Origin: Chrysomallon squamiferum
Lineage: Eukaryota; Animalia; Mollusca
Direction: 5' to 3'
Length of the DNA: 64,000 bases
NCBI GenBank assembly: GCA_012295275.1
Contig: CM022667.1
Coordinates: forward strand, 5,642,001 to 5,706,000
Of the stretch, positions 5,732 to 51,670 are shown piece after piece; positions within the stretch are counted from its first letter, which is position 1; each line of letters begins with the position of its first letter. Under the pieces are notes generated by a model. That model saw only the letters and a list, made by a program, of their open reading frames with translations, had not been told where the DNA came from and ran no database searches. Position numbers and translations under genes: made by a program.

Positions 5732-5841
5732 TCAGCCTCTGACTTGTGTGTTTTCATAGACGGTGAGTACAGAGTATGGTGAGTCTTTTCTAGCTTCCAG
5801 TGATGAGTAATGGTTTGCGCACTCTGTGTTATTGTCAGTAT
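5732..5841 (-). pseudogene. Orphan terminal ITAM exon (DTDNNTECANHYSSLEARKDSPYSVLTVYENTQVRG*)
   Basis: 110-nt exon with tttcag acceptor. Same length as, and near-identical to, the last exons of genes C and D. No TM exon was found upstream of it. Confidence 0.8.
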
Positions 5842-6821
5842 CTGAAACATAAACCAGAATTTAATAGCTGGACAGCGTTAATACTACTATTAGTAGTAGG
5901 AGTACTGATAGTAAAAGTACTACGTATAGTGGCAGTAGCCACATATCTGCATGTCATCGGTAAAATCAAATTTAAACTTTTCTCTGTAATATTATTTGTT
6001 TTTACTCCTGCTTGAGAACACTGAGAGTTTCTACTGACTGTTATTTTATTTAAATAACTATTTCACTGAAATACTGTCTTTAATCTGTACCATTTAAATA
6101 TTGGTATGAACTATTTAAGATGTTTTTCAAAATTCCTCTCAGATCAGCTACTGAACGCGGACATGTATTTCTTAGATTATTGATTCACTTCTAAGGAGCG
6201 TGGTCATACTGATTTGGATTTGTTTTCTACAAAATAAATAACTTAATTTTTAAAGACTTTTTCAAAGATGGCGTCGCCCATTTCCTGTGCTGCTCAGTGC
6301 ATTTTTTTAATCGATTCACAAGAACCGTGAACTGCAATCGCCAAACACTAACCTCCCAAAATCATCACAGTTCAACCCACATACTTTAGATAGTTCAATC
6401 ATTCAACGTCATTCCATGTTGTTTTTTTCTTTCTTTTCTTCTTCTTCTTTGGGTTTCTTTTGGTTTTGTTATGAGTTATACGATGTGCAAGTTATGCTGT
6501 ATTTACATCTGTCAGTGATCTTGATATGTTTTAGTCGTGTTTTAGGAGAGAGCCACGATGCTTGCCATGGTAATCAACGACGAGTTATAATTGTTTATTA
6601 TTATTATTATTATTACTATTATTAATGATTTTATTTTGATTTTGCATTATTATTTGGCAGTATAATTTATATTCAGTTAATATCTTACTTTAAGGTTTAA
6701 TACAGTAAAAATATATCAGGTGTATGTATGATAACACTTTAATTTTATATTTCTTGCTGCAATATATAACTGTTAAATTTGTTAATTCTTTATGTGTAAA
6801 ATATCTAAAGAAGATTTTAAC

Positions 6822-7084
6822 CCTCTCTCATTATTTCCTGTTCCTTGGTAAACTATTTGAATCGAAAGTAGTTATAAGCCAAAACTCGAATCAGATATCT
6901 GGTGTTTGGTTGTAAACTAGAAATCTCTGTTGTGTGATTTGTGTGAAGACCTTTTTCACCAAACGGTTCAGTGAGATTTGTCCACTCAGATGTTGTGTCT
7001 GCTCGATACTGTACAAGAAATGTTTGTTGTGATCCTCCATTAAATTCTTCTGTCCAAGACACTGACACTGAATGTGGACCTGTG
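6822..7084 (-). pseudogene. 5'-truncated FN3 exon fragment with in-frame stop
   Basis: Encodes TGPHSVSVSWTEEFNGGSQQTFLVQYRADTTSEW...RVLAYNYFRFK then TAG. Near-identical to the FN3 exons of B, C and D but lacks the acceptor and first codons. Confidence 0.85.
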
Positions 7085-7118
7085 AACTCTTTACACGCTT
7101 TCTGTTTGTCTGTTTCAG

Positions 7119-7824
7119 ACAGGTTAAAACTGGAGTACAGGAATCATCTGTCTATGATGATCTTCAACAAAATCAAGGTTAGTTTACTGTTACTCTTTTG
7201 TGGTTGTTTTCTTTTTTTATATATTGGAGAATAGAATCATCAGTTAAAATATTCAGTAATATTAATTTAGTTGTTTAAATAAATAATAATAATGACTGTA
7301 AACTCTCAGTGTTTTCAAATAAATGTGAAAACAAATATAACTAATATTAAAAAAAAATGTTTAAATTTGATGACACACTGACAGAATGATGCACAAATAT
7401 ACAGCTAATTATTTATTTTCATGTTTAGTGGTTTGCAATCATTACTACTGTTCCTGTCACCAGTACTATAACTATTACTAGTGTTACTATTACTGTTACA
7501 AATAGTGCTACTAACACATACTACTAGTAATGCTACTACTGCCATAAAGACTACTCTTACTACTGTTAGTACTACTGCTACTGTTAGTAAATTTAAACAC
7601 TTGTGTTTTGGCTGCCATCTTGTACACCACTAATAATAATACTCCAACTACTGATGCTATTATTATTCCTGTACAACTATTAAATTTTGGATTATTTTTC
7701 AGATTCTGAGAGAAACACGGATACTACAAACAATTACTCATCACTGGAAGCTAGAAAAGACTCACAATACTCAGTACTCACTGTCTATGAAAACACAAAA
7801 GTAAATAATACCAATGCAACATAG
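7119..7824 (+). pseudogene. Orphan plus-strand cytoplasmic-tail exons (YDDL exon 7119-7177, ITAM exon 7703-7824)
   Basis: tttcag|A CAG GTT AAA...SVYDDLQQNQ G|gttagt, then tttcag|DSERNTDTTNNYSSLEARKDSQYSVLTVYENTKVNNTNAT*. Paralogs of the C/D tail exons, with no plus-strand ectodomain upstream. Confidence 0.8.
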
Positions 7825-13070: not shown

Positions 13071-16000
13071 TCATTTGTTAAGAGGTGTTCCAGTTTCATT
13101 TCTTAGTTCTTGACAATTTCCACTGACAGGCTTCGAATCCTTCTTACCTGTTTGGAAGAATAAAACAGACAGTAAACTTCAGCAGTTGAAATAAATCTTC
13201 TTAAGACTGCAGTGCTTAGACAAATGAAGATGTGCAAGTGATTGAAAAGTTATCTTTATTATCATTTTATCTTTTCATCTTTAAGCCAAGGTCATATTAC
13301 ATTAAAATCATCATAAAATCAATTAATAAAATAATTTAAAAAATAATAATAATAATAAAATTAAAAAACAATTAAAATTAAAAAATTAAAAAATAATAAA
13401 ATAGAATAAAACAAATAAAGCACTGTCTTTCCCCAGTCTCACAACTTTAATTTCTACTTCTAACCTCTTGTCATCAATTTCTCACTGATATGCTGGTCAT
13501 AATTTTGTGTATTGTCTGCTTCTACCATAGTTAGAACTTTACAATCAAATATTAAAACAGACCTATCTAGGAAAGACATCCATTATATTTAAATAATTTT
13601 CAATTAAAACCTATTCACATGTTTTAGAAATTATTAAAAGTGTATCTTAAAACTGTAAAACCACATTATAAAGTCACATTTTATATTTTTCATCAGTATC
13701 TGAGACCAACATCTTTGTATTATTTGTTCTCGTCTTTCCTCTTCTTCTTGTTGAACTCTTGTTGAAATTCAGTGAAATGTAACAGGTCTTACATCTTTAG
13801 CAAAATCTGACTCAAGTAAAAATTACAGACATTCCTTATGTGCTGTTTCATTAAATAATGTATATACTATTAAGAGAAAAAAGAAATTAAATATAAAATG
13901 TACTGTTTTGATTTATAACTAGTACAAAAAATATTAATGTTTTTGAAACTCACTGAGCTTTGACATCTTGATAACACCAACAGCACAGAAGACAGCCCCA
14001 AAGAGAAAACCAAGAGCACAGAATGCAACTGCTGCAATCCATGGCCCTTCAGTTTTGTCAACTGAAAGACAACACAAGTGTTGTAATGTTTGCTATATGA
14101 ATGTTGTTACCATGTAATCAGAATAATACAATAAATTAATGCATTCCTCTTCCAGATATACCCAACTAGTTCTTAAATATAATTAATAGTGATCAAATGA
14201 CAAGTAAAATATAAAACTGAAAATGTTTTTTGAGTTAACTGAAAGCAGGAAAATGTTTAATGCTGAACAAAATGTCTACTTACCATCTGTCTTAACAGCC
14301 AAGAGAATAGCTGTAACAACTGCAGTTACGATAACACAAGCTCCAACCACTATCAAAACTATTCCCAGTGTCTTCAGAATTTTGTCTAAAATTACACAAT
14401 AAATTCAATTAAACTGTAAATAATAATAATAATAAGAAGAAGAATAATAATAATTAAAAAAGATGAAATTATATAAATAATAATAAACAAATAAATAATC
14501 AGATTGAATAATATAAAACAGCAGTAGAAAAGAGTAAATAAAAAATATAAAGAAAAAAATAAGAATAACATAAATAAATAAATAAAAACATGTACTACTG
14601 AAAATAGTTCATTGTTAATTAGTTTCCAAAAAGTTTACTTTTATAGAAATCATTTCATGAACAGAGAAGTGGTGCACAATTTTTGTTTATGTAGAAATGT
14701 AAGATTTTACATTCGTTGAACCTATACATCTGTAAATAATATCTGTCAAAATTTGTCAAAGATTTGGAAAGCAATCTTTGAAACTCAAAGTCTCTGCAAC
14801 CAATGGCCCAAACTTCATAACAAAAAATACTGGTCAGTGTTGAACTGCATCCTTCAAAGGCTTCTCATCACTTCCAGTTATCACCTTTAGAATAAAATCT
14901 CTACCAAGTTATAATACCAGGAGGATATATGAAAAAAAAGAGAGAAAAGTCTGAGTCTGGAAAGGATTTTTCTTTTAGCATTGACATGTTTAATGCACTG
15001 ATATGTATAAACAGATCAGTATGGATTACTGCTTCAGATATACGTAATTTGACTAGGGGCTACATATCAGGACTTCAGTGTGTGTAGCTGCTGACAGATT
15101 CATCCAATACAAAATATATCCTATGGCCTCAGACATCCATACCTTGATTCCTGACTTGTAAATCAATTATGTCTAGATTTGTTATATTTTCTTATTGACA
15201 TCCTGGGCTGAAGATCATTTAAAGGTTACATAATACACAAGGTCAAACAAAAGGTAAAATGGTTATGAATACTCGAATTCTTTACTAGAAGTAATACATT
15301 TTTTGTTTCCTATAAATTTACTTTCCAGTAATAGCAGTGGAATGAACAATTGGTTGCTGTGAACATACATACATACAAAAGAAAAATGTATCCACACACA
15401 CACACACGCACATAACACACACACAGTTTGCCACGTCAATCACCTACTAGAACAAAATGGTCCTATGCTAACTGGAAACTAGATGAAGTAGGTTACTAAT
15501 ATGGCAAAACACAGTGTTACACACTACTTCAATCATGTAGCACAACCCAGCCACGTTTTGTTCAGTGTCAACATTGAGTAAAATTTAATCTTATTAAGAA
15601 ATCAGAAAGAAAACAAAATACTCTGATGTGACTGTGTGCCTAGCATGATGAGTTGTGGTATGTATAACATGTTTTTCTGTGTCATTTGTATCTACATATG
15701 CAACATTGGATGAATCTCAAAGATAAAACAAACAGAAAAACTAAAACTGACCATCAAATGGCTCCTTCACCACTAGAATGAGGATGACAATTCCAACTAC
15801 AATCAGAACTGCAAGTACAGCAGACACTGCAATACACCAGTCAAGTGATTCACCAGGACCTGTAATAAATAAATATACATTAACAGCCACCTTCTTCTTT
15901 CACAGAAATGTTTCTTTGTGTCAAATATTATATTAAGGTACTTTAGTTATATATGTGAAAGATCATACAAAGTGTGAAATGGTCAACCTGAAATTTCTTT

Positions 16001-16953
16001 ACTCATTTTCAAACAAACAAAAACTATTCTGAATTACATTAATAATAATAACAAAAATAATAATAAAAAAAACACAAGGTCTGAAATTGGTAATGATCTT
16101 GGAAAATTCTCATAGAACATCCAAGGCTTTCTGTTTTACAAGGTTGTCTTAGGAAGATCTCAAAGAACCTAATCTGCTGTGAGACTGGCATTCAGATACA
16201 TTGTGGAAATAGCTTTACATCCTGTTACTGTCTCTGGTGCAGTCTTACACAAGTTTACAAAGGTTATGTTACCCTCTACTTTGATAGTGTACTTTACAAC
16301 AGCTTGTTCTGATTACCAAATTAATTATTTTCACTTCATTGACTCACTACTTTGACCCAATAAAAACTAACTACAAAATTAAGCTCATTTCAAATCCAGA
16401 CATTATTATTGGCACCAGCACCTCATAAATGCACACAAGAGAGACAGAAGATATAAGGGTGGTTATGCTAGCAGCTGGCATTTTACAAGGTTGGGCATAT
16501 ATGGCAGTATGTGTGTGTTCATAGAAGCTGTGTTTTAAACTGTTTTATTAGAAACATTTTTATTAATCAGTCAGATTGTTTTCCAACAGCAACAGTTTGA
16601 ATGTTGGTGTTTAAAATTCTAATCATATTTATACAACTTGATGTAAAATTTCACTTGGATAGAAATAATTTACACTTCAGTTATTGCATTCAGGAAACTA
16701 TTGTTTAAACTCTTGAACATATTTATAGAAACTTGATTTAAAACTTGACTGGAATTTGAAACATTAAGTTTATAGTTAGACTTACCAATGCTTTCATAAT
16801 CATGGTAATATTAATATGTTAAAATGCATTACTGAAAGCAACATTTATAAAAACGTTGTTTATTCATTGTTGATGAGATTTTAGATTTCGTTTCCTGGTT
16901 GCATTAACAGAAAAAATAAAAATAATATAAGAACAATAATAATAACACTAAAT

Positions 16954-17003
<50 letters not shown>

Positions 17004-18164
17004 ATTTAACATGCCTCTTAGCTGATGATGAGTCAAAAACAGAAGAAAAAATCCTTAAAGGCCGAGACTTTAATATTTTTTGTTATAATATCATATCACT
17101 AAAATGAAGTAGTAATATAACTGAGATGCTATGGTAAAGTTAGCACAGCACAAGTTAGTTATTTGTGTTGATGACAGCACCAGCAAATATCTTGATAAAG
17201 AAGAAATTGCAGGGAAGATGTGTGATAAATAGAATGAAGCAAATTAAACAGAAAGTACATGTTTAGTACATGCAGAATATTGATCAGTGTCACAATACTT
17301 AAATACTTCAAAATTATGATTGAAAATAAATGGCTAAAAATGAAATTCTGCATTCATTGTATAGTAAATTAAATTTAAATTAATAATTATTTTTCTTATA
17401 GTAATTTGCAAAATAGAATGACATTTATGTGATTAATATTTCACTCATACAGTCCCTTTATTATATTAATACTGGAAACACAGAATCATTACCCACAAAA
17501 TTATTTAAAATTTTATTAAATTAATACATTTTTAAGTTATAAAACACAGTTTATGTATTAAGATTTTATGACAATGATTAATTTTAATTTTACAAATATC
17601 TTACCTGTTTGTGGTGTTGTACTTTGACCTATGACATTGAAAAAAGAAAATTTAAATGAAGTAATAATGTTCTTTTTATTATTTTGTTTATCTTATATAT
17701 GTATATATTTATAGACACACACACACATACACACACACACACACACATATATACATACATACATGCAGTCTATTCAGACGTACGTAAGACAGAGAATATT
17801 CAAAATCCTAAACTACATACTTGAAAGTCGCAGGTTTCCCACCAAAAAATAGATTCACGCAAAAATTACGAAAGACAAAGAACGGCGTGCTTCGTGGGAA
17901 GCGATGATTACCCTTGGTTACTGAGAAACCCTTTTAAGGTTGTCTCGACGGCCGAACGGTAATATCGTCCGCCTTCGGAGTGCGGGCGAATGGGTTTGAG
18001 TCTTGTCATTATATTTGACGGGGTTTGTGATGTCCTGACTTTGTCCTTCTGCGCCAGTGCGTAACCAAATATTGTCTATGTGCAGAGTCTATTCAGACGT
18101 ACGTAAGACGAAAAATATTCAAAATCCTAAACTACACACAAACATGCATACATACATACATATT

Positions 18165-18196
<32 letters not shown>

Positions 18197-20236
18197 TACA
18201 TACACATTTAATACGCCTCTTAGGTGTTCATATGAGTCAAAAATGATAAATACTTTTTAATTGCAAATGACTCTGATTTTAACTTTTTTCAGGCCTTGAC
18301 CTCCACTTTTTTGATTGGTAGCCCACAATAGATATTGGTAATACATTTTTAAAATAAAATAAATGATATGTTTTTGTTTTTTATCTCCAAACAACAATTT
18401 TATACATGGGTTAACATTTTCTTTTCTTCGTTGAACATCACCATTCAAATTCCTTTCATGAAGGCAGAAAAAGGCCTCCAGAGCCCCCTTTTTAATAGAA
18501 AAATAACTGAAATGAGCTTTACACTGTACAGACTGTATTTTTAAAATTATTTATGTAATGCTAATGCCACAAAATACAGGCTTTACTAATACCTTTATAT
18601 CAATTTTTGTTTGTTTCAGGTTGTTAGGAAAACTACAAATAAAATGACAAATATATTCTTCTATTTCTGTAGTCACATTGCACAACTGCCAACATTTCAT
18701 GTCAATACCAGGTTTGGATTCTGGCATCTGAGGTAGATATCAGTAGACTCGGCAATATCGGTGCATACAATCTGTGAACAGTCGCTGTTGGCTCTTTGAC
18801 TGTCTATCACATTATGAAACAGAAAACACAGCTAAGGAATATTATGCATATAAATATTTAAACCTTAATTTCATATACTTGGATTTGTAGATTATCTATC
18901 TTACTTACATAATGACAGTAACATGTTTAGATAATAAAGATTAATTTATATCAACTTACTTTCACATGTTACTCTGTGTTTGTTGCTTTGTGTTTTATCT
19001 TTTTGAAGTGAGCACCACCAGTCAGTAAGATCTCTATCTGCAACATTATTTATCTTCAGATTGTAAGTTTTACTTTCTGATGTCGTTTCTTCTGTTCCAC
19101 TTCCACAACTTACAACATAACCTGGCGGTGGATCACCGAACACACCACATCCTCTTGTAGGAGATTGTTCTATTGAAGTAATGGCAATTGATGATGTTTG
19201 CCTATTGAACAATACAAGATCATCAAGCCCAGCAGCATCTGTCACTGTACAGGTCAGAGTGTAAGATGGACAATTCGGTGAGCCGGACAATTTCAATGAA
19301 AAACCTACAAGACATGAAACAAAAAGTAAATAAATTAAACTTTTATTATTAGACTGTATTATTATGGTGAGTTGTTTTTCTTCAGGGTTTTTTGTTTGTT
19401 TCTTTGTTGTTTTTGTAAATTTATTAATTTTAATTTATGTGCTTCTAAAATGTATTTCATAGATATTACTTATTGATGAAAACATTATAAATAAACAAGA
19501 GAAATAAAAAAATGAAGTAAACAATAACAGATCACAAGATCAGGTAAATACTGGAATTTCAAACTGAACACACATTATCATGTCTAAGCATTATTTATGT
19601 ACCTCCACCAATACTGTTTATAGATCACCAGTTACATGCTGTCAAATTCAAAGATCAAAATGATAATTATTTAATTATTCATATTTTGTGTGATGTCATA
19701 TGCACTGACTCAGTAACAACATTTCAGGATAATGAGAACTAATATGAAAACACAGTTAAATGTTCAACAACCAAACATAATGTTGTGTTCATAGACAAAA
19801 TACAATGCTATAATATAAAGTGGCTAAGGTACATACAGCATAACATTTTTATTTTCATTCCTCAGCTATTTTATTTTCTTTATTTTAATATTTTATTTGT
19901 TGTTTTTTATACACATTAACTTTTAAGTCAGACAAATGAAAGCATATATGTGTCTGTGTTATTTCACCATTGCAAACGCTTGTATTTGTGCGTATATTTT
20001 ACGTTCCCAAAACCATTTATTGTATCCGGCAAAATATTCGATATCTTAGAATATACAACGGTAACTGTATCACAGTTATCTGGTGAGTGACCTAATATGC
20101 AAGATTACCTAATAATAGTGAAATCAATTATTTACACAAACACTGAAAGAACATCCCAGTGTAAAAACTAACCTAAGCAAATACCAACATGTAGAAGAAA
20201 TATCCACAGAAACAAACACCTCAAATCAGACGCCAT
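13071..20236 (-). CDS. Gene E: single V-like Ig domain plus three transmembrane segments (~275 aa)
   Basis: Leader 20236-20173 (MASDLRCLFLWIFLLHVGICL); V-like exon 19304-18960 (LTCTV...LFNR...WWCSL); 24-nt stalk 17628-17605 (SQSTTPQT); TM1 15859-15752 (WCIAVSAVLAVLIVVGIVILILVV); TM2 14385-14284 (LGIVLIVVGACVIVTAVVTAILLAV); TM3 14061-13954 (WIAAVAFCALGFLFGAVFCAVGVI); last exon 13147-13071 (SKKDSKPVSGNCQELRNETGTPLNK*). All junctions are GT/AG and phase 1, giving an open 828-nt frame. Confidence 0.8.
17764..18135 (+). mobile_element. tRNA-derived (SINE-like) insertion bounded by ~55-bp direct repeats, in an intron of gene E
   Basis: Direct repeats (gtctattcagacgtacgtaagac...aatattcaaaatcctaaactaca) at ~17764-17816 and ~18081-18135. 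The CpG-rich interior has A-box-like cggccgaacgg and B-box-like gggtttgagtc at ~17941-18010. Flanked by CA/CATA microsatellites. Confidence 0.55.
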
Positions 20237-20621
20237 TTTCCTTTTTGTACAAAGAATCCTAGTTGTACGAGTCCTTTCAAGCCAACTGGTTTAGGTGGCT
20301 GTGAGTCGGAAAAATGAAAAAGGCAATCAAAAAAGAAAAAAGAAAAAAAAGAAAAAAACAGAAAAAAACGATATTCTGTCAAAAACTGATACTATTATAA
20401 TGTATGGCATAAACTCTATTTCAAAAACATTTCTTTATTTTCACGTTATTGCTTTACTGTCTTATAAACCATGTTTTAACCACTTTTAATAACCTCAGTC
20501 AAGTTTGCTGTTATTTACAAACCAAAACCTAATTCGGTTGTATTGAATGGTCCCGATGCCTGCTTATTGATAATTTACTTCCTGCCCTGTGTCGTGATTC
20601 CGGGCTAACGACTCTACATCG
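20237..20621. promoter_or_regulatory. Candidate bidirectional promoter between gene E (minus) and gene B (plus)
   Basis: Gene E ATG at 20236 sits in a YY1-like aaaatggcg context. A CpG-containing plus-strand segment with an ETS-like acttcctg (~20577) ends in a strong donor, catcg|gtgagt, at 20621. No TSS data. Confidence 0.45.
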
Positions 20622-22737
20622 GTGAGTGCTTTTTCATTTTTGAATTCATTATTTCTGTATAATATTTCAGTAAAAATGTCAAACGATACAAAAAAATGTT
20701 TGCTCATATCTAACATCGTTTGCTACTTTAAGTACATATTTTATTATTTATTATAATTATGTATCTGAGAAAGAGTACAGCCGTTTTTCTCTCAAGTATT
20801 TTTTCTCTTCAATAGGGACACTGAAAAGTGAAACAGCTTTTGTTGTGAAAATTTAAGAAAGGTATATTATTTATTTCAGTTATGTAAATTATTTATGTTT
20901 CTTTGATAAGCGTTTTCCTTCAGTAAGAATCAATCCCAACAACTGCGAACAAATACCGCAGGTAAATATCAATATGCAAGAATGCTATATATGTATTTAA
21001 TTAAGGAAGTTTTGTATAAAGTTATGTTTTTCATAATAGCTGGGGATGTTAAATTGATTATGGCTGTTACAACTGAATGCTTAAATCCACAATCACTGAT
21101 ATAACCTTTGCTCACAAAGATATATGGCTTCATCTCTCCCCGGACTGTTGTATATTCACTTATGCATTTGCATTAAACATAGATCCAGAGTTATATTTGA
21201 ATTGAAGTTAACAAGCAAGTTGCTAAAAGGACAGAAATTAATGCTCATGAGACATTGTTTGTCCCTCCACCAAATCAAAATTAATATAAAAAAGTAAAAG
21301 TTTGTCACAGCATAGTTTAAGGGGAGTAAGAATACCATCTAAATTTGCAATGCAGAACTAAGTTAACCCACATGATTAGCAGAGCAAGCGGAAACTTCAG
21401 CTTGCTGATTTTATGATTATTGCCTTCAAATAATGTCAGAAATTTGTATGGCTGCCAGAAATATTTCATGCACCACATTGTATTGCTTTTTTTGTTGTTT
21501 ACTGTTTAATATTGCATAAACATAAAAAAAACAAGAATGCTAAGGAAATAACAAAGATCTCAAGAATTACCTACCCATGTGCAAACTTACACATGATTGC
21601 TTTACTGTCTTACAAACCGGTTTTGACAACTTTTAATAATCTCATTCAAGTTTGCTGTTATTTACGAACCAAAACCTAATTCAGTTGTAATGATTGGTCC
21701 CGATGCCTGCTTATTGATAATTTACTTCCTGCACCGTGTCGTGATTCCGGGCTAACGACTCTACATCGGTGAGTGCTCTTTCATTTTTGAATTCATTATT
21801 TCTGTATAATATTTCAGTAAAAATGTCAAACGATACAAAAAAAAATGTTTGTTCATATCTAACATCGTTTGCTACTTTAAGTACATATTTTATTATTTAT
21901 TATAATTATGTATCTGAGAAAGAGTACAGCCGTTTTTCTCTCAAGTATCTTTTCTCTTCAAAAGGGACACTGAAAAGTGAAACAGCTTTTGTTGTGAAAA
22001 TTTAGGAGACGGAGATTATTTATTTCAATTTTGTTAATTATTTATATTTCTAAGTAAGCGTTTTCCTTCAGTAACGATCAATCCCAACAGCTGCGAAAAA
22101 ATACCGCAGGTAAATATCAATATCCACCAATGCTAAATATGTATTTAATTAAGTTAGTTTTGGATAAAGTTATATTTTTCATAATAGAGAGGAACGTTAA
22201 ACTTGATTATGGCAGTTAAAAGTGAATGCTTAAATCCACAATCACTGATATAACCTTTGCTCACAAGGATATATGGCTTCATTTCTTCCCTGACTGTTGT
22301 ACAGTTACTTATGCATTTACATTAAACATAGATCCAGAGTTATATTTGAATTGAAGTTAACAAGCAAGTTGCTAAAAGGACAGAAATTAATGCTCATGAA
22401 ACATTGTTTGTCCCTCCACCAAATCAAAATTAATATAAAAAAGTAAAAGTTTGTCACAGCATAGTTTAAGGGGAGTAAGAATACCATCTAAATTTGCAGT
22501 GCAAAACTAAATTAACCCACATGATTAGCAGAGCATGCGAAAACTTCAACTTGCTGATTTTATGATTATTGCCTTCAAATAATTTCAGAAATGTTGATGC
22601 CTACCAGAAATATTTCATGCACCACATTGTTTTGCTTTTTCTTGATTACTGTTTAATATTTCATAAACATAAAAAACAAGAATGGTAAGGAAATAACAAA
22701 GATCTCAAGAATTACCTAGCCATATGCAAACTTACAT
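20450..22737 (+). repeat. Tandem duplication, two units of ~1147 bp, each with the candidate non-coding first exon of gene B
   Basis: ~20450-21596 and ~21597-22737 align along their length. The matching donors at 20621 and 21768 are 1147 bp apart. Confidence 0.92.
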
Positions 22738-22744
22738 AAACTGC

Positions 22745-22877
22745 TACAAAAATATCAAAACGGAGACCAGAGAAGGCACTGAGTGAAAAATAAACAATAA
22801 TGCAAGCTGGAATCAGAAAAGTGACTGAACATGTTAGAAGATGGAAGTGGTCCTGGGCTGGACACTTCAGTAAATAA
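22745..22877 (+). mobile_element. Degenerate non-LTR retrotransposon (RTE-like) fragment
   Basis: One frame reads AGIRKVTEHVRRWKWSWAGHFSK*, resembling the KWxWAGH motif C-terminal to the RT domain of RTE-clade LINEs. It abuts the end of the tandem duplication. Confidence 0.45.
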
Positions 22878-24358
22878 TCAAGACTTAAAAAACCTGTGAT
22901 GACAGGAATATTTACATTTTTTATAGACAGCACCCTAAAATTACATAACTGATCTTGCAGGAACTTTTACTGTTTAATACATATTCATAAATGCACTTTT
23001 TATTATTTGTTATTCAACAAATTCATAAAATCGGATTATTTTGTCTGAACAGAAATATGGGAGAACACTGGCTTTGTTAACTCTGTTCTATTCTTGTACG
23101 TTGATATCAATTCAGTTTTGCAGTAAGTAGAAATAATACAATAACTTTGAAGTATACAAAATATATATAGACTATTTCTTTGAATGTAAACTTGTATCTT
23201 TGGTGTATCTTCTAATCATGCATTTCTTTTCTCAGATAATTATGTTTCTATGATTTAAAAATTGTGGATGTTCCAGTGTTAGATGCCAGTTTCGATACGT
23301 TAATGATGATCATTTCACACACACACACATACAGACACACACACACACAGACACACACGCAGACACACACACAACACCAGCAACAGCAACAACAATAAAC
23401 ACACACAAATATTTTATGTAAACACAATTAATGAAAAGATGAAATAGTATTCAGCTAAATAATTAAAAGTTAATGATAAGCTGGACATGAAAATAATTAA
23501 CATTAAAAAAGTTACTTTTAATCTTTATTCTAATTTTTTTTCTGCTTATTTAATATAAAGAAATTAAAACAATTGAAAATCTAAACCAAACAAATAACTG
23601 CTAATAAATGATAACTTGAAAACAGTGTTTTCTCTTGTAGTATTCATACACCTAGGTAAAAACATAATCATCACACTGGAGTATTTCATACCTTTCAGTT
23701 AGGCCAAACAAGCTTACTTCAATTTGTCCATGATCTGAAAATGTTCCTCTTTCAGCATCAGTACCGAATTTGCACCACTGACCTTTTTTTTATTAGAAGC
23801 ATTTTTTCAAAGCGTTATTCTTGCCTTTCTATCCTGTATTTATGGAATCCATTTAAAAAGCCCAAATAATTAATCAACTGTTATGATTATTTTGTCACGA
23901 TATAGGGAGAACAGATTGAGCTCCAGGATGTAGTAGTTTTGTTATCTTTTTTTCTTTTATCAGAACATCGTAATGGAGATTTGTATTCAAAATAAATTAC
24001 AAAAATAATGATACTGCATGATGTCATTAGTTCTTCTTATCTTTTAACAATTGTTGGCAATGAATGACAGATGTTTCATTTCCAAGAAATTGTCAAGAAA
24101 TTATATTGAAAAGTTAGACAATGTGTACAATGGCCAACTGTAGATGCTGACTGTAAAATATATATACATACTTACATCATCCGTTTGAATTTGCCACAAT
24201 AATAATTTATCAGTAAATCATTGCAACATAAAATACATTAACACCGATCCACGCATTTTGATCTAGATTGTCCTGTTGTTGTAATAATAATAATAATAAT
24301 ATTAAATGATCTGAATGAAATCATTAATATTTACTAATATGACTATTTCTAGACTAAC

Positions 24359-24444
24359 ATGGATTTGAAAACAATCACTGAAGTTGCACTGCTCCTCTTT
24401 CTTCCTGCTTTTAATGCAGTTAAAGGTAACTATTGAGTATTTAT

Positions 24445-24481
<37 letters not shown>

Positions 24482-27400
24482 GTATGTATAAATATGAAAA
24501 ACAAAAACAACAACAGCCATAGATCACAGTGTTTTATTATTTCTTTGGTATGTCTCTATGTGGATGATGTGATTTTAAACTATGAGTAGTAGATAACAAG
24601 TACACAGTATGTAAACTAATATAAAAAATAAGAGATATACCTGGTATTTAATAATAATTACAGGTGAAACTACTACAACACTTGAATGTATGTACAACAA
24701 GTACACAGAACGTAAAATAACTGTTTATTAAAAATAATAGATATACCTGGTATTTAATAATAATTACAGGTGAGGCTACTACAACACTTGACTGTATGTA
24801 CAACAGGTACACAGTATGTAAAATAACTGTAATATTAAAAATAATAGATGTACCTGATATTTAATAATAATTACAGGTGATGCTACTACAACACTTGAGT
24901 GTATGTACAACAAGTACTCAGAATGTAAAATAACTGTAATATTAAAAATAATAGATGTACCTGATATTTAATAATAATTACAGGTGATGCTACTACAACA
25001 CTTGAGTGTATGGGTGATGGACAACAAGGACACAGAACACAGTTGGTGTGTAAAGTTAGTGGTACTGTCAAAAGTGGAATTACCTTCTCAGCACCAGGAG
25101 GAACACAAGTTGTAACGTGTAACTCAGACAACACTCGGTGTGTAGGACAACCTGGTTACTCTGCTGTTGTTGACTCACAAACACAGATAACTCTAACTAT
25201 TCAGTCTTTCAACACTGATACAGATGCTGGAACATGGAAATGTCAGGATGGAGGAGATGGAAATCCATCAACTTGTACCAAAACTAAATTATGTGAGTCG
25301 TTCTGTCCACTGGTCATTATCTATGTAGTGTTATATCTTCTATATGACTTTTGTATTGTCAATATTACATTCTAGAAATATTTGAAATCTTCAATTAAAG
25401 GGAATTGATTTATTTTCAGTGAAACAGAATGGTGTTTTAATTTTTATTGCTTAATTTTTTTAATTTTAATTTTTTTATTTATTCCTTTAATGGAGTGTTT
25501 TCATACATACGTGATTTGAGACTTGATTTCTTTCTTTTATTTTTTGTTTGTTTTTAGTGGGAGGAGTGTTTTTATGTTTCTGTTCCCTAATTTTTCTAAT
25601 TGTATTTATTTATTTATTTAATTTTTTTATTGTAATAACAATCTGCAAAACTATTTATATTAAAATAGATTTTAGTTCTTTTGATTTTTTTTTTTTTAAT
25701 GTAATTTGTCAGTTGAACAAATAGGATGAAATTAGATAAACATTATTTTGTATCACTGACTGTTCAGTTAAGGTAGCTGGTCTATTTCACATGAAATGGT
25801 ATGATGGTAGCTGTATTTGTTTTAATTTAGATTTCTTTTTTGTAAAATGCGTCAGTTGAAAAAGAGAAAAACGAAAACAACAAAACAAGATAAACATTAT
25901 TTTATATCATGACTTTCTGAAATTAAATATTCTTGTCTTCTTTCGTTTAAGCAACAGTTTATATGTATTGATATATGGTTTCCTAATCAGAAATGAATAC
26001 AAAATGAAAATGGTAAGAAAGGAAATAATTGGTATGCACAACAAAACAAACAGAAATGGAGAGAAAACTGACAGAGACACCTGTTTCTGCTAAATCTGTA
26101 TATAATAATGTCAGAATTAAATACTTTCATTATTCATAATTGTAATTCACAATCCACTTATCAACAGTTTCACTTTGGTGATTCCTAAATAATTGTACAG
26201 TAAAATGGAGGCCACTGAAAAGCAGTATTGGAATAACTGTCTCACTATCTACATGAGTTAATCAACAGAAAGAATGTGATTTGTTTAAAATGTTTCGTGA
26301 AATTCAAAATAAAAACTCCGCTCACATCCTAGAAGTGGAAACAGTGTTTATAAAGTTGCCTGAATAATATTTATTTTACAGTAAATTTATAAATTGAAGA
26401 AATGGATGAGAAAAAGAAAGGCAGAAATAAAAAGAGAATTGTAAAAATTATCTCAAACATTTATCATTTATAATTGTGTTGGACAAATTGTAATATCAAT
26501 TGTTAAGATTTTGATCACCAAATAATAAAATATTTCTTTTCATTTCATTATTTTATTACTATTTTTTTCCCAACGATTGTCTACAGATAGATATATAAAT
26601 ATATTTTAGGCCAGATTAAGAAAACCCAGCTTACTGGAAATATTACCAACATTTGCAAGCCTTGTTAGTTAAAAGAGCAAATATAATATCTGGTTTTAAT
26701 CCGGATTTCACTCTTTAATTTTTAATTTTATTATTCATTCTTTTCATGCCTCCTTTTTGCTTTTTTTTAATTCGTTTTTCTTACTTTCTGTTTTTTAATT
26801 CTTGATTGTGTTTAAAAAATAATATCACCTTAAGTGCAATAGTTGTAATCAGTAATTGTTATTAATGTAGAACTTAAACAAAACCATTAAATAATGATGA
26901 TTATAATACAATTAAAGACAAACCAATTCTAAACTATAACAGCTAAGAAATGCAGTCAGAAAATTAGTGTATTCATGCACGAAATCCTTACTGATCTGAC
27001 ATGGTTATAGAATGTCCCTGTTACAAACTGTCAAATGATAATCATCTTTTTTTCCTTGCCTTTCACATTCAGATGGTCCAGACAGTGTCAGACTGAGTCC
27101 ATCATCACCTGGTACAGTTGTAGAAGGTGACACACTGACAGTTACCTGTACTTCTCTCTGTAATCCTACATGTTCCTATTCCTGGTCACTCAACAATCAA
27201 ATACTTTCTACAACTTCTCAGTTAACTCTGTCATATGTCAGTAGACAGCAGACAGGTGAAATATATAAATGTACAGCAAACAACCCGACTACATCAGTGG
27301 AAAAATCTGAGCAGTTTCAACTCTCAGTTCACTGTAAGTATTGTTTAATAATGCTTCTTTGTAGAACATTATCTAGTTTCAAACAAACATTTAACCAAAT

Positions 27401-28522
27401 CTTCTACATATTTAGAAGAAATGTTTATCAGAACTGTGAACTGATATATTCAAAACAAATATTACAACTAAGCAGTTTCGTTAACTTCATATATTTATCT
27501 ATTTATCTATGTCAGAGATCAGAAAAAATATGTTTTAAAGTGTTTGTGCTTATATGTATTTACTAAAAACGAAACAATTATTATTTTATAAGATATAGTA
27601 TTCATCTAGGTGTGTATATGTGTAAATGTTTTTCATAGAAATGCAAGAACCTCCGTATAATAATATTTTATTTGTACTTTAGATGGACCAGACAGAGTAA
27701 AAGTAAACGTGAGTTCTGCACTGACAGTACAGGAAGGTGATGATGTGGCTGTGTTGTGTGAAGCAGATTGTCGTAAATCTTGTTCTTTCACGTGGAAGTT
27801 TGAAACTCACACAAAGTCTACAAGTGCTGTGTTGACTTTAAATGATGTAGACAAGTCACAGGCTGGTGTCTACACGTGTACAGCTGTCAACACAAACTCA
27901 AACAAATCAAATTACACAACAGTTACACTGGATGTCCTGTGTTAGTTTATTTTATTAATTAATAATTTAATTTCATTCTTTAATAATACTGTTTTTATTA
28001 GGATTAGAAAAGTCTAACCACACTGTTATAATCATGCCAGTGTAAAAGAAAAATAACATTAATATTGTGAACGTGTGTGAGAGTGTGGAATGTGTGTGTG
28101 TGTGTATGTGTGTGTGTGTGTGATAGTTAAATTCTTTTCATTTTTCAAGGCAGTCTTTTGTGTTTATTTCGTGCTGTGGACATTTTTAATATGGTAGCTG
28201 GAACAGAAGACTTTGTTTTTTGTTTGTTTGTTTGTTACGAAAAAACAGAAACAAACAAATAAACAAAAACAACAACTTATAAATATAAAAAATGTATCAA
28301 AATGTTTCTTTTTTCCTAAACTGAGAATATGTCTTTCAGTTAACATCTATGACAGTTATGTATTTAGTTAAAATTGATTGAATTTATCATTCCAAATATT
28401 ACATTAGAAGTTAGATTTTCTATCATCATAAATGTGTCTCTGTGTGGATGATGTGGGTTTAAATTTAATATTTTATTATTACTTAGTCATCAGATTTTAC
28501 CTAATCATTATTTATTTATTTA

Positions 28523-28595
<73 letters not shown>

Positions 28596-31500
28596 TTAAT
28601 AGTTTACTTATTTATTTATTTATTTAATCCACCTGTCTACAATATATTTTTCTATGAATTTAACTTATGTTACAGATCAGACTTCAATAACTTCTTTGAC
28701 TTTAAACTCGAAGTCTGCAGAGATAACAGTTGATGAACTGACTCCCGTGTCTCTGAGATGTGAAGTTGACAGTAATCCAGCATCTCACATCAAACTGTTA
28801 AACAATTCACACATTCTACGTGAAGTGAAAAACTCCAAGTCAGTGGAGTACAGCTGGAATGAAGCTGGATGTCTGGATACAGGATTTTACACTTGTGAAG
28901 CAGGAAACAACATCAAGTCTGATGTCAGTCAAAGTGTGCAGCTTCTTGTTACTTGTATGTAATGTTGTAATATAATTTGTACTTGTTTAATAATATTGAA
29001 AGATATCACTTAAAATATGGGTCATTCTATGTCACATCAAGTTTTATCCCATTGAAATCGGATGTGAAATGCTACATTATTTCTTGCATTGGATCATTAG
29101 TTTTGGAAATGTCATATAATAATAAAGTCTGGATTTATTCGTTAAGAAAGGGTAACAGCTCACTTCTTTCTCGGTATCCCAAGGATAAACCTGAATAAGC
29201 ATGGCATCTTCAAAATATCTGTGTGTGTGTGTGTGTGTGTGAATGTGTGTGTGTGTATGTGTGTGTGTTAAAAGTTGATATTCTCAGCCTTTTCTAATTC
29301 ACCTTAAATTTGAACTTGCAGTCATTTTAGCTACAACATTCAAACGAAATCCAAAATGAAAAAGTGTTATTCATTTATTTATTTAGTTTGATTTTTTCAT
29401 TCCAAACCAAAAGACATTATAAGTGTTTTGCTTTAGGAATTTTTATTTTCTAAAGAAAGTAGATTCCACATATTATTTTTGTAAATTAAATCAGCTCCAG
29501 TATTAAGTAATAAAAGATTAAAATGAAAATACTTTTTTATTTTGAAATCATCTTTATTGTTATTTAAAAAAAAAAATCAAAAATCAATAAATATATCAAA
29601 AGAAAAAAAATCTTTCATTGTTATGTCTTCTATTTTATAGTATGTTAAATTACTGCTATAATAGACTTAAATTTGTATAAGTAAATATTTGTTTCAATAC
29701 AGTTCTTATTGGTAACAGTAATCACTAGTTTCACTTTTTCAGGTTCACCAAGACTTGATCATCGAGTTACATTTCAGGACAAATTTGCTTCTGTAGAAGA
29801 TGGAAATGTAACTCTACACATTTCTGTGATTGCCAAACCAGTTCCAACATTTTTCTGGTATAAACTCACAGATGTAAACAATAAAAGTCTTGGATCTACA
29901 CAACCTGTACTCATTACAAATGTGTCTGTTATAGGTGAATATAAACTGACAAAAGTGAAACAAGAAGATTTTGGAATCTATCAGGTTGTTGTGTCAAACA
30001 GGGAAAAAAGAACAGATCTTTCTGTGAAACTAAATCTTACTGCAGAAGGTAGCAATACGATACTGATGCATTGAATTATTATTATTATTGTTATTTTAAA
30101 ACTAGAAATTAATTCCTATTGATCAACTCCAATATTAATAGACAGAGGAATACTATTTATTTACTTTATATGTATTATTTTGTTTAAACGTACTAAATAT
30201 ATATATTTTTAATTATGTAGTTTTCGGAAGTACGTACTAAACAGCTGCATGTTTTCATGGATAAACAGATTCTTACAAATATTACTTTTCAGCTTCAAGC
30301 TTAATTTTACTCTTTGCTGTTACACTTTTTAATGTTTACTTATCTGCCTTGAATGAAAAACATCTGAATTAAACCTTTTTTAATTTATTTTTTTATATAA
30401 AATAATTGTTTATATTTTTTAATTATCTTATTTTATTATCTTTTTTGTTTTCACTAGTCAGTAACCTTTAGCTGCCTGCTGAACATATTTATTAATTGCT
30501 TAGCATTTGCATCTCTTTTTCAAACCCTTGATAACATTTCCTCATCCTCTTTGCCACAAGATGGGAAGTTTTTAGAAAACATTTATCGAAACAAAATTAT
30601 AAATGTAGAGAACAAAATTATAAATGTATTTAACAAATTTATAAGCAGATCACTGCTGACACTATTTAACAATTTTGTTACGTTCTAAACTCAAAGGTCC
30701 TCCAACTGTTCCCTCTGACGTGAGAACTTGGATCACTGGTTCACATTCAGTGTCAGTGTCTTGGATAGAAGAATTTAATGGAGGATCACAACAAACATTT
30801 CTTGTACAGTATCGAGCAGACACAACATCTGAGTGGACAAATCTCACTGATCAGTTTGGTGAAAAAGGACTTCACACAAATCACACAGCAGAGATTTCTA
30901 GTTTACAACCAAACACCAGATATCTGATTCGAGTTTTAGCTTTTAACAAATTTGGTTTCAAAAATTTTACTAAGGAAGAGGAATTCTTGACAGAAGGTAA
31001 ATTACCATCATTGCTCTTTATTTTACAGTTTTAAATTTAAAAATAATTTTAGTATTAATAAAAAATAAAAATATAATTTTAAGTGTAAATGACACACATT
31101 TGCAAAGATACAAAGTGTATTTGTTGCCTAACTAGTGTGGATCGTGAAAATGTAGCTATTCTTCTGAAAATGCTATTATCAGCTCTCAGCAGTTTTTACT
31201 GCAATTAATTCTAGCTTGTGTTTAACCAATTTATTAGACATTCAGAGAAACATTTCATTACGAAAATTTACATTTCTGTTATTTGTAAATTTGTTAGCAG
31301 CAAAAGATCCTGTGGCAGTTGCAGCTGGTGTTGCTGGTGCTGTTGTTGTTGTTGCTGTGGTTGTTGTCCTGCTTGTTGTCCTGCTTGTGTTGTTCCTCAG
31401 ACGAAGAAAGCAAAACAAAACACCATCTGACAGAGCTGTTACAGGTAATTTACTTTTAATGTTACAATGTTAACTTTTGCTTATTAATCACATTAGTGAT

Positions 31501-32380
31501 CTGTAATGCTTTCACATTAATAGGAAAATCAGTGTGCAGAGATTGATATGAGTTTTGCCAGAAAGGCTTAACATTTCTTTAATGACAGGTAAGATTTCTC
31601 CAAGAGTAATTGAATTTTATTCAGTCCTTTATTTACTTAATTAAGACAAAAAAGAAAAATGTATAATTGTGTACCAAGTTCTGTAAAATTGCATTTGATA
31701 AATAATTATTCCAAGGAATTTCTATTAGAATGAAATTTTTTGTTATTTTCATGTTATTTTATTTTTGTTATAGCTAATGCTGTCCTTATGACTACTGACT
31801 GATATTATTGAAAGAGACCAGTAATTCCCTCTGAGTTTATATTGTTATACTACCATTTTATGTTTCTGTTCATTACTTTCTAAGACTAGGAAAATGATGT
31901 TAAATGAAAAAAAAACAGAGAAAAGAAATGAAATAACTACTTATTTTTAATTTTACTTTAAAACACGTAGATGGAAAGCACATCTATGGAAATGACAATA
32001 TGGCCTTTGTTGAGGACAAGAAGCCAAAGAAGCCACAAAAAGAAAAAACTGAGGTACGTAAAATATATTTCCTTTATTCTTAATTTAATTTAATTACATA
32101 TTTCTTAGTTACAGTTATATCAGAATCTCCACCAAATTGTATTTAAAGGAACAAAAAATTAAAAATAAATAAAATAAAATGAATTTCATTGTTTTTACAG
32201 CCAGCAACAGCTAAAAGAAGAAATGAACGTCAGCTGGTTTACACTGAAGTTGAGTTTACAAATGAGAAAATGTCACAGCCCATCCACAAAAGAGAAGAAC
32301 CCACAGTGTACATTCAGATTGACTTCTCAAAGAAAGCACCACCCTTGTGTGATGATGATAATCAACAGAACACAAAATAA
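24359..32380 (+). CDS. Gene B: type I IgSF receptor V-C2-C2-Ig-Ig-FN3-TM with YxN, ITIM and ITSM tail (~729 aa), predicted inhibitory
   Basis: Leader 24359-24425 (MDLKTITEVALLLFLPAFNAVK); V 24984-25292; Ig exons 27073-27333, 27683-27940, 28676-28954 and 29743-30048; FN3 30697-30996; TM 31298-31444 (NAGNAG acceptor, Val/Leu-rich helix then RRRK); 31971-32053 (HIYGND); 32201-32380 (LVYTEV...TVYIQI...QNTK*). GT/AG throughout with compatible phases, 2190 nt open. Confidence 0.88.
24594..25011 (+). repeat. Tandem 106-107 bp repeat containing the V-exon acceptor and first 24 nt of the V exon (gene B)
   Basis: Candidate micro-exons 24664-24687, 24770-24793 and 24877-24900, each ttacag|24 nt|gtatgt, precede the real V exon at 24984. 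Confidence 0.92.
32201..32380 (+). CDS. Gene B last exon with ITIM (LVYTEV) and ITSM (TVYIQI)
   Basis: Acceptor tttttacag, phase 0. The motifs match (I/V/L/S)xYxx(L/V) and TxYxx(V/I). Confidence 0.88.
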   Translation, partial: PATAKRRNERQLVYTEVEFTNEKMSQPIHKREEPTVYIQIDFSKKAPPLCDDDNQQNTK

Positions 32381-33013
32381 AACATCCTGATTATGTAAAA
32401 TATGCATTCATAAAAATTACAGAAGTATTTTAAAGATATCTAAGTAATGTTACTCGTTTTAGACAAAAGTTGAAAACTTTATATATTTAAGAAATATAAA
32501 GTAAAAGACACAGACAAAAAATAAAATTATGCATTCTGTACTGATGTGAATATAACACAAAGTATGAAAATAAGAAATTTCTGAAAAAATGCTGCGGAGA
32601 ATTATTAATTCACTTACAGAGATTTAACAATTCAAACTGTAGAAATTTCTACATGTATCCATCCTGATAGCATTATAAAAAAAAGTAACAGTAAAAAGAT
32701 TTCAAAACTTTTGTGTAAAACAAAAATTAAGAACTGACAGAAAACTATTGAAAAGAGTTCAAAATGGACAAATGATTTCAAATTTGGAAAATCTATTTAT
32801 ACAAGTTTTGTTGTATTTTGAAGACACCTATACAATTTTATTTAGTGATTGGAAAACAATATAAAGACCACACAGATAGTTTAGGCAAAAGTATCTCATA
32901 CTGACTTGTTTTTATTTCTCTATTCATTTATTTGTTCTTGTCTTTTTAAAAATATTTTTTTTATAGATTACATTAATTATTTTAGATTTTTTTTATTATT
33001 AATGTTATTAATT

Positions 33014-50228: not shown

Positions 50229-51299
50229 AAGTGTGTGCGTTGTTGCTAGGATGGTTCTCTAGTTCTGCTACAGAGATGTTTCCTAGGATCTTGACACCTG
50301 ACTCTGTTGTTGCTCTCATCTCCCGTATCTTGCTGATCAGACAGACAGACAGAACTAAATGTAACGTGCTAATCAGACAGACAGACAGACAGAACAAAAT
50401 GTAACGTGCTACTCAGAGTGATAGGTACGCTGTCTGACAAAGCCAGGGGTGTGTGTATGTTCTGATCTGTATTTCAAGTCTTTTACTCAACTTTTTAACT
50501 TCCTTAGTTGACACATTTCTCTCTGACTCTGTGGTCATAACTATGTGAAGGCAGGTCGTTTTCTTCTCATTCCTGACAATGATATTCTATGTAGGCATAC
50601 TTAGTGCTCCGATTACCCATAGAAGGAAAACTTTGTGATTTCAAAATAACAATAATATAGAAGAAAATCTGTGAAAACTGAGTTAATCTTTTAAAACATA
50701 CATATTAAATACTTTACACATTTAATCTGCTACCTTAGTTAATACTGAGAAAACTCAGATATAGTGAACACTCATTTCATCTGTCGTGAGAAAAACGATG
50801 TCATCAAATGACACGCATCATGTCGGAAAACACTGCTCTACTCTGATCAGTGACAGATTACCGTTGTTTGATATTATTCAATAAAAACAAAAACAAAAAT
50901 GAGGTAACAACTTGTGATATATTTATTGTTATGTTATTATTTTGTTATTTTTATTATCACGTACATTAGATTTGTGACAAAATAATTATATGAATAAATT
51001 TAAAATAAATTCAATGAGTCATGTTGCATACCAACTTTCCTTGAAATTAAAATAATAATATTTATATTATGTTCATTATTCTAACTGAAATGGCATGATT
51101 ACGATACGATACAGTTTGATAAGAAACAGTTCAAAGTTTATCTGTCGGTATTGCATAATAATTATAATAATTATAATGATCGACTGAACTAAACAGATGT
51201 TATAAATATTCGGATTATTTTACGTTACGTCAGTTCCAGATAGCCTACTACTTAGTTACTTCAAAGTATACTATAATACACACCGTCATATACCAAGTA

Positions 51300-51670
51300 T
51301 GTTGTACTAGTTTAACCTGTAATTATTATTAGATATCAGGTATATCTATTGTTTTTAATATTACTGTTATTTTACATACTGTGTACTTGTTGTACATAAA
51401 GTCAAGTGTTGTAACAGCCTTACCTGTAATTATTCTTAAACAGTAAAACAGGTATATCTATTATTTTTAATATTACAGTTATTTTACATACTGTGTACTT
51501 GTTGTACATACACTCAAGTGTTGTAGCAGCCTCACCTGTAATTATTATTATTATTTTAAGTTTTTATTCGATTTATCTATTGAAACAGTTTTACATTTGA
51601 AGATTTTACCTTTAACTACACTCACGAGTGAAATGAAGAGGATAACTCCACTGAAAACGCTGATAACCAT
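51300..51670 (-). pseudogene. Orphan A-type leader exon and decaying acceptor/micro-exon repeats, V exon missing
   Basis: Leader 51670-51610 (MVISVFSGVILFISLVSVVK, G|gtaaaa, 61 nt as in gene A). Three repeat units follow: intact at 51535-51512, donor mutated at 51423, degenerate at ~51315. No V exon follows. Confidence 0.8.

Follow-up and report, generated by a model that had tools for sequence, protein, structure and literature searches.

A three-pass immunoglobulin V protein of Chrysomallon squamiferum as a candidate binding partner of the inhibitory-type receptor encoded beside it

In a stretch of 64,000 nucleotides from the mollusc Chrysomallon squamiferum (assembly GCA_012295275.1, contig CM022667.1, positions 5,642,001 to 5,706,000; hereafter the window), a gene that we call E lies in a cluster of immunoglobulin (Ig) genes, A to D. 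It encodes what is probably a single V-type Ig domain on three transmembrane (TM) helices, and the locus raises the question of what such a protein does beside receptors with signalling tails. We found that the E gene was real, expressed and conserved, and a predicted complex supported binding of its V domain to that of the neighbouring receptor B. With slightly less than even confidence, we propose that E is the linked binding partner of B, and that engagement of the two V domains would give an inhibitory signal through the immunoreceptor tyrosine-based inhibitory and switch motifs (ITIM and ITSM) of B, most simply between two cells.

E was a minus-strand gene at 13071-20236 with six exons (Table 1) in one open frame of 267 amino acids, with AG and GT at every splice end and phase 1 at each junction. 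A scan of all 64 kb for hydrophobic symmetric exons on both strands gave 9 rows at 8 places; three of these places were the TM exons of E, all inside 1.9 kb, and three others were the TM exons of B, C and D. The TM cores of E held no charged residue, and none of the 30 residues past TM3 was a tyrosine. The preliminary description of this DNA had read here a V-like domain, three phase 1-1 hydrophobic exons (108, 102 and 108 nt) and a Lys-rich tail free of tyrosine, and the open frame, the exon scan and the residue count confirmed it. The second intron of E also contained, at 17767-18139, a GC-richer insert of about 265 bp between 54-bp direct repeats (93%), perhaps a small mobile element.

RNA from three runs (X1-X3) of a single study, in the form of short-read contigs, which drop rare forms, was compared over 13430-14400, with the joint between the V exon and TM1 lying outside that stretch. 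Between 5 and 9% of the E words were present in the three runs. The TM2-TM3 joint was seen in 3/3 runs; in each of them the loose end beyond TM2 was the end of TM1 and the one beyond TM3 was the start of the tail exon (two checked as unique exact matches). Moreover, single contigs of X1 (1246 nt) and X3 (878 nt) carried TM1, in part or whole, together with TM2, TM3 and the tail. Neither a joint that skips an exon nor a loose end at 14061 or 14284 was among those listed for the three runs. Thus, TM1, TM2, TM3 and the tail were joined in the main transcript, and the earlier alternative of mutually exclusive TM exons failed for it. It is scarcely credible that the three exons are mainly cassettes yielding single-pass or secreted forms, a reading favoured by their common phase 1-1 and by the heavy splicing of the Fester family (FF) genes of Botryllus, which the available part of the source places mostly in extracellular and tail exons (PMC12582321); besides the RNA joints, three models from the gastropod Gigantopelta aegis kept all three helices. 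A direct junction of the V exon with TM1 is predicted by two of these homologues, P0020 and P0136, in which the V domain stood directly on the module.

Some features of the RNA pointed to variation around this transcript. The X3 contig began precisely where TM1 does, which hints at a branch, through either other upstream exons or unspliced RNA. Variant copies in the runs differed at 2-7 positions per exon, non-synonymously where checked, and X2 held a version with a different tail start; these variants could be either alleles or paralogues. An alternative Lys-rich tail frame near 13770 was rejected because RNA joined TM3 to the exon at 13147; positions 13582-13949 were covered solely by a low-depth unspliced contig with 22 differences. 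Additionally, X1 and X2 had low-depth unspliced contigs on 13457-13949 that were about 94% like the last intron of E, one of them with a shorter intron, and their sequence suggests additional copies or haplotypes of E.

The V exon was predicted as a V-set Ig domain at a predicted local distance difference test score (pLDDT) of 97.2, from an alignment of 91 rows, and the ectodomain of E was likely to consist of this one domain. In Foldseek, the best matches of the model were antibody V domains (E 9e-5, template-modelling (TM) score 0.75, identity 15%). The V domain of P0020 aligned with a single-chain variable fragment (Z 14.1, root-mean-square deviation (rmsd) 2.1, 109 residues) and with chicken CD8 (Z 13.8, rmsd 1.8, 101 residues). 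Pfam gave no family at E<=1 for the E V domain, a sequence too divergent for it. The domain was 38-43% identical to the V domains of C and D and 46% identical to that of P0020, and in a quick tree of 44 V domains it was not sister to the P0020 domain, with a support of just 81. RIG-5, Dpr2, DIP-alpha and Kirrel1 were among the solved sequences nearest to the V profile, each a weak match (E 5e-4 to 1e-2).

On the other side of the proposed pair, B was represented by a 729-residue model, the longest among the enumerated splice combinations and sequence-based, and its tail carried an ITIM (LVYTEV) and an ITSM-type motif (TVYIQI). E and B were divergent and head-to-head, with start codons 4,123 bp apart and no stop-free frame of more than 86 codons between them. 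The exon with the B start codon began at a splice acceptor. Upstream, strong donors on the plus strand numbered only two, 20621 and 21768, one in each copy of a tandem duplication, and either is a candidate end for a non-coding first exon of B. Because donor 20621 lay 385 bp from the E start codon, this distance and the shared upstream interval suggest that E and B share a promoter or are co-regulated. The tails of C and D had the ITAM (immunoreceptor tyrosine-based activation motif) spacing, YxxL-x7-YxxL.

When the two V domains were modelled together, the complex prediction scored 0.80 (0.76-0.81 over three runs), against 0.07 for the best of 3 controls; the contacts agreed at 100% between runs and the partner pLDDT was at least 89. 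In calibration, 51 of 78 solved microbial pairs came up to the mark as against 2 of 108 mismatched ones, and among eukaryotic pairs 39 of 65 solved and 2 of 126 unrelated ones did so; the four mismatches that passed scored 0.34-0.59, all below the E-B value. The predicted interface consisted of the C, C' and C'' strands and the FG loops (strands of E from the model, those of B by analogy). Differences between paralogues were more frequent at this face: B and A differed at 13/21 positions there versus 13/79 elsewhere (Fisher p 9e-5), and D and C at 7/20 versus 12/99 (p 0.018). This modelling supports binding of the E V domain to that of B and, taken with the head-to-head genes, gave support to the earlier suggestion that E may be the partner of the ITIM receptor beside it. 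That E is a 'self ligand' remains an inference.

According to our model, the V domain of E would dock on that of B through these strands and loops. E has no signalling motif, and the ITIM and ITSM of B would damp B's own cell upon engagement. ITIM tails recruit phosphatases of the SHP type, and B would be expected to do the same. The V domain of E would sit on the membrane and that of B would top six domains, which makes contact between two cells the simpler geometry. With V domains exchanged on the three-TM anchor, each pair would gain its own specificity, and the E/B pair may serve as a self-check.

Several points weigh against this proposal. A shared promoter would place E and B in one cell, which would equally fit a co-receptor acting in cis. 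A family of several copies with variants in the RNA does not resemble one ubiquitous self marker, and the immune role of the genes in the window is itself a proposal from sequence. Restricting the comparison of paralogues to variation at the surface weakened the enrichment at the predicted face (p 0.006-0.18 for B and A, 0.12-0.48 for D and C). The docking controls were unrelated natural proteins, not stated as Ig domains, and the pass may reflect a general likeness between V domains, as solved V-V complexes use this face (Dpr, DIP and RIG-5 chains were among the weak matches). Neither can the docking score tell which family member binds, since close cousins can pass, or separate cis from trans. 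Finally, the RNA support came from short-read contigs of one study, with the connection of V to TM1 taken from homologues.

The same evidence bears on three other explanations. In the first, E and B are the two chains of one receptor of the Fester/FcoR type, both on the same cell: E would contribute part of the binding site and the three-TM anchor, B would contribute the ITIM, and the ligand would be a third molecule, for instance an allotype or the surface of a microbe or symbiont. The head-to-head layout would suit it, with 385 bp between the E start codon and the candidate first exon of B, as would docking through the face used by VH/VL and CD8, and the co-expressed FF/FcoR pairs are proposed heterodimers, although the available part of the same source describes the heterodimer as still under test (PMC12582321). 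The V domain of B stands six domains away from the membrane on which that of E sits, and B would have to fold back; we consider such a receptor unlikely. We judged it similarly unlikely that E does not bind B at all, the docking being generic and the layout a by-product of inversions, with E binding itself, a family member or a foreign ligand. None of the docking controls was described as an Ig domain, the window held inversions, truncated copies and orphan pieces, and just one pair of the E/B type was in view. On the other hand, the E-B score exceeded those of all four passing mismatches, and the accessions of a three-TM model and of a C/D-type receptor of G. aegis, five apart, hint at kept linkage.

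Distinctly less probable is a third explanation, that E and B do bind but in a developmental adhesion or wiring code, similar to Dpr/DIP or nephrin/Neph, rather than in immune self-recognition. In line with it, the nearest solved V sequences, all weak, included chains of this kind, and a G. aegis relative of C and D was auto-named nephrin-like. However, the cluster mixes the ITIM and ITSM of B with the ITAM-spaced tails of C and D, turns over fast and appears lineage-restricted. Mixed ITIM and ITAM tails, fast turnover and lineage restriction are typical of paired immune receptors.

Relatives of E showed how the V domain and the membrane part combine. The V domain, used as query in a word search for longer proteins, returned one hit from 143 candidates, a G. 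aegis receptor at 50%, and a full HMMER scan returned 132 proteins. When these and P0003 (133 in total) were sorted by hydrophobic segments after residue 40, 102 had none (many of them short single-domain fragments), 27 had one, one had two, one had three, and 2/133, long repetitive proteins that matched weakly and in part, had 5 and 8 segments. The sole three-segment protein was P0020 (XP_041347222), in which the V domain was followed directly by a module homologous to the three TM exons of E. Searches with the module added two proteins, both from G. aegis: P0136 (one of 2 matches among 1,727 candidates, the other being the query) and P0137 (1/5,975). Each TM exon of E scored above 999-1000 of 1000 shuffles against P0020 and P0136. 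No relative of the module was found outside G. aegis in these searches, which need shared exact words, and all 20 proteins chosen for look-up were from G. aegis.

The three G. aegis homologues, unnamed automatic models, shared the three-TM module with E at 40-46% identity and with one another at 74-85%, and all three helices were present in each. They differed from E in their N-terminal parts: one had a V domain of the other class, one model lacked the V domain, and one had an acidic N-terminus without a signal peptide. Two V classes occur in the cluster, C/D/E and A/B, about 25% identical over partial alignments. The V domain of P0020 belonged to the C/D/E class (46% to E) and that of P0136 to the A/B class (48% to B); the TM parts of these two proteins were 77% identical and their V domains barely aligned. 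Since either V class was found on such similar modules, the three-TM part would act as a reusable anchor without a signal of its own, on which V domains are exchanged. Judged from these proteins, E belongs to a small multi-copy family with swapped ectodomains, unlike a single universal marker of the CD47 kind. The near-consecutive accessions XP_041372800 (three-TM model) and XP_041372795 (C/D-type receptor), on contigs of equal length, are a hint that three-TM and receptor genes have stayed linked in G. aegis. Some G. aegis proteins, namely P0024, P0033, P0129 and P0032, combined the two V classes in a single chain; should the classes be complementary, such chains could pair with themselves or link up head to tail.

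As for the membrane topology, the flanking charges had earlier been read as those of a three-pass protein with its N-terminus outside and its C-terminus inside. In E itself, lysines plus arginines numbered 3 in loop 1, 2 in loop 2 and 5 in the tail, which is weakly informative; in all three G. aegis homologues there were 2-3 in loop 1 and none in loop 2. The charge pattern of the three homologues fitted this orientation better than did E's own charges. A cysteine at the outer end of TM1 was kept in 4/4 proteins, E and the three homologues. AlphaFold placed three helices in P0020 at 197-226, 233-254 and 263-294 with a pLDDT of about 60-80 and a predicted template-modelling score (pTM) of 0.50.

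Two origins for the TM exons were considered and rejected. Tandem duplication was not shown, as the score of TM1 against TM2 was matched by 49/1000 protein and 45/1000 codon shuffles. Derivation from a receptor TM fared no better, with TM1 against the TM of C and D matched by 41 and 38/1000 shuffles. In the remaining comparisons, of the E exons among themselves or with the receptor TM exons, more than 200/1000 shuffles reached the score. The profile of the three-TM module had a single match among solved sequences (E 1.6). In the ESM Atlas, the TM part reached 0.78 at best and no family, and the top rows for the V plus TM part were two unnamed mollusc clusters (0.90 and 0.89; 279 and 259 amino acids), which are leads only. 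A viral fold library matched the Ig part alone, with a TM score by query below 0.3; in fold searches with the P0020 model the V domain took up the matches, and the TM bundle was barely probed. Weak Pfam matches of P0020 to MFS_1 and Tetraspanin were below cut-off, were absent from P0136 and P0137 and were rejected: for Tetraspanin (PF00335), P0020 reached 15.1 bits against a cut-off of 32.1, and tetraspanins have four TM helices and a large extracellular loop instead of three helices.

Which known design does the locus resemble? The closest is the Fester/FcoR system of Botryllus, followed by Skint1 and CD47, and E fails a defining feature of each. As described in the available parts of two papers, the FF proteins of Botryllus schlosseri have a V-type Ig domain, a Sushi domain, three TM helices and a short tail without motifs, and FF1 and FF3 are 91% identical in the TM half versus 37% in the ectodomain (PMC12582321, PMC12065747). 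The accessible text of the first also reports that FF genes lie head-to-head with FcoR genes, which encode multi-Ig single-pass receptors with an ITIM or hemITAM (PMC12582321). Similar to FF, E has a signal peptide, a V-type Ig domain, three TM helices and a short tail without a signalling motif, lies head-to-head with the gene of an Ig receptor with tyrosine motifs (B; one pair), and belongs to a family in which a conserved TM half (77% in G. aegis) underlies exchanged ectodomains of two V classes.

E also differed from FF. The Sushi domain and the spliced stalk exons of FF were seen neither in the E model nor in the homologues: in P0020 and P0136 the V domain led to TM1 within about 10 residues, and the E model aligned with them without an insert. 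Pfam gave no Sushi match in P0020, P0136 or P0137, although the 3.1-kb intron of E leaves room for an extra exon. On the receptor side, B has five Ig domains and an FN3 domain. Furthermore, the partners proposed here carry two different V classes, unlike FF and FcoR, and the FF host is a fusing colony, in which the FF/FcoR pair has a role in allorecognition, whereas the host of E is likely a solitary snail. No sequence link between E and FF was found; the TM-module searches, which depend on shared exact words, gave only G. aegis proteins. The E locus is likely convergent on Fester/FcoR, and we did not file it as a member, for lack of Sushi and of a sequence link.

CD47, the design with which the preliminary description compared E, has one IgV domain and five TM helices, and four conserved cysteines are mentioned in the available text of the source (PMC5413580). 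E shares with it a single IgV domain on a multi-pass anchor and a predicted engagement of an ITIM receptor of a paired family. In CD47 a disulfide ties the IgV domain to the membrane part, and the protein, present on nearly all cells, restrains phagocytosis by way of the ITIM receptor SIRP-alpha; for E the corresponding engagement is a docking prediction. Unlike CD47, E and its three homologues have three helices, with TM3 spliced straight to the stop-bearing tail in E, and E is multi-copy, has exchanged V domains and lies beside the gene of its predicted receptor. No CD47 family appeared in Pfam at E<=1 and no CD47 chain among the fold and sequence matches listed, which does not by itself exclude homology. 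CD47 was not supported as the closest model, given a multi-copy three-TM family with two V classes in G. aegis and the Ig plus three-TM proteins already known from the Fester family and Skint1.

Mouse Skint1, related to butyrophilin and B7, is described in the accessible parts of two papers as IgV plus IgC with three TM helices (PMC4382165, PMC4861494). E resembles it in the Ig ectodomain, the three TM helices, the short cytoplasmic tail and the membership of a multigene family. However, Skint1 adds an IgC domain to its IgV and has gamma-delta T cells as its target, the E model has one Ig domain, as do P0020 and P0136, and no homology was found. A parallel in gene order is offered by NKRP1 and CLEC2, genetically linked receptor-ligand pairs according to the portion available (PMC3819593): as with E and B, receptor and look-alike ligand lie a few kb apart, and a proposed missing-self pair is included, but these proteins have a C-type lectin fold and a single pass, and their genes are tail-to-tail. 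The accessible text of a review of the invertebrate Ig superfamily (IgSF) lists oyster CgIgIT2 and snail FREPs and leaves CD47 unmentioned (PMC11999971), and the word 'immunoglobulin' does not occur in the available text of the vent-snail genome paper (PMC7736800).

A broader and rather doubtful reading joins these observations into a lock-and-key code of two V classes. Either of two complementary V classes could be borne by the three-TM anchor or by a long receptor with an ITIM or ITAM, and the genes would be inherited as head-to-head pairs of opposite class. This would be a molluscan locus of self-recognition, independently convergent on Fester/FcoR in a solitary animal. As part of the same reading, E would face the inhibitory B here, and the mirror pair would be a three-TM protein of the A/B class with an ITAM-type receptor of the C/D kind.

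Table 1. Positions of the features of gene E and its surroundings in the window, with the homologous models of G. aegis
Feature	Position or locus	Strand	Details
E exon 1, start codon and signal peptide	20173..20236	-	64 nt, ATG to GT donor, phase 1, hydrophobic; sequence model
E exon 2, V-set Ig of the C/D class	18960..19304	-	345 nt; from fold and identity; joint to TM1 inferred from homologues
E exon 3, TM1	15752..15859	-	108 nt; RNA contigs join TM1 to TM2, 3/3 runs (loose ends)
E exon 4, TM2	14284..14385	-	102 nt; RNA joint to TM3, 3/3 runs
E exon 5, TM3, conserved Cys and Gly pattern	13954..14061	-	108 nt; RNA to tail exon, 3/3 runs
E exon 6, short Lys-rich tail, tyrosine-free, stop codon	13071..13147	-	from frame and RNA loose ends
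Divergent E/B interval	20237..24358		1.15-kb tandem duplication, 20439-21591 / 21587-22736
B: signal, V (A/B class, 24984-25292), four more Ig exons, FN3, one TM, tail	24359..32381	+	729-aa open splice model
Three-TM homologues of G. aegis, unnamed automatic models	LOC121367147 (XP_041347222), LOC121367015 (XP_041347153), LOC121386068 (XP_041372800)		

The rest of the cluster bore marks of rearrangement. B had its membrane-proximal Ig and FN3 exons, together with their introns, in common with C and D at about 84% DNA identity (28639-30980 on the plus strand versus 57058-54877 on the minus strand); since B differs from C and D in the V domain and the tail, the ITIM and ITAM receptors are mosaics. 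A tandem repeat of about 107 bp contained the acceptor and the opening codons of the V exon of the A/B class and thereby produced several decoy acceptors (24595-25038, 1499-2071 and 51287-51550); a truncated copy lay between D and C. The FN3 exon of C (39029-39320, minus strand) fell into two frames in tblastn, a frameshift or an assembly error, and C may make no membrane form. Additionally, orphan 3' pieces of the C/D type occurred at 5744-7800. On the minus strand these were part of an FN3 (7077-6829) and a tail with ITAM spacing (5845-5744); a second, inverted copy of the tail lay on the plus strand (7720-7800).

In the literature on molluscs we found no self marker read by an inhibitory receptor, most subscription papers being outside the search, and no description of the E family in that on Gigantopelta, on gastropod IgSF proteins with ITIM or ITAM, or on Fester-like three-TM proteins in molluscs. 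If our proposal is true, molluscs have a linked self-recognition pair like those of sea squirts and mammals. The locus gives a concrete pair of domains of about 110 residues with a predicted interface and with built-in specificity controls in A, C and D. The reading in terms of two V classes predicts a rule for the whole cluster, with three-TM genes facing receptors of the opposite class. If the proposal holds, mammals (Skint), tunicates (Fester) and gastropods would each have gained proteins of Ig and three helices next to immune receptors. This would suggest that the three-helix anchor has a function of its own, which the cited papers leave unexplained.

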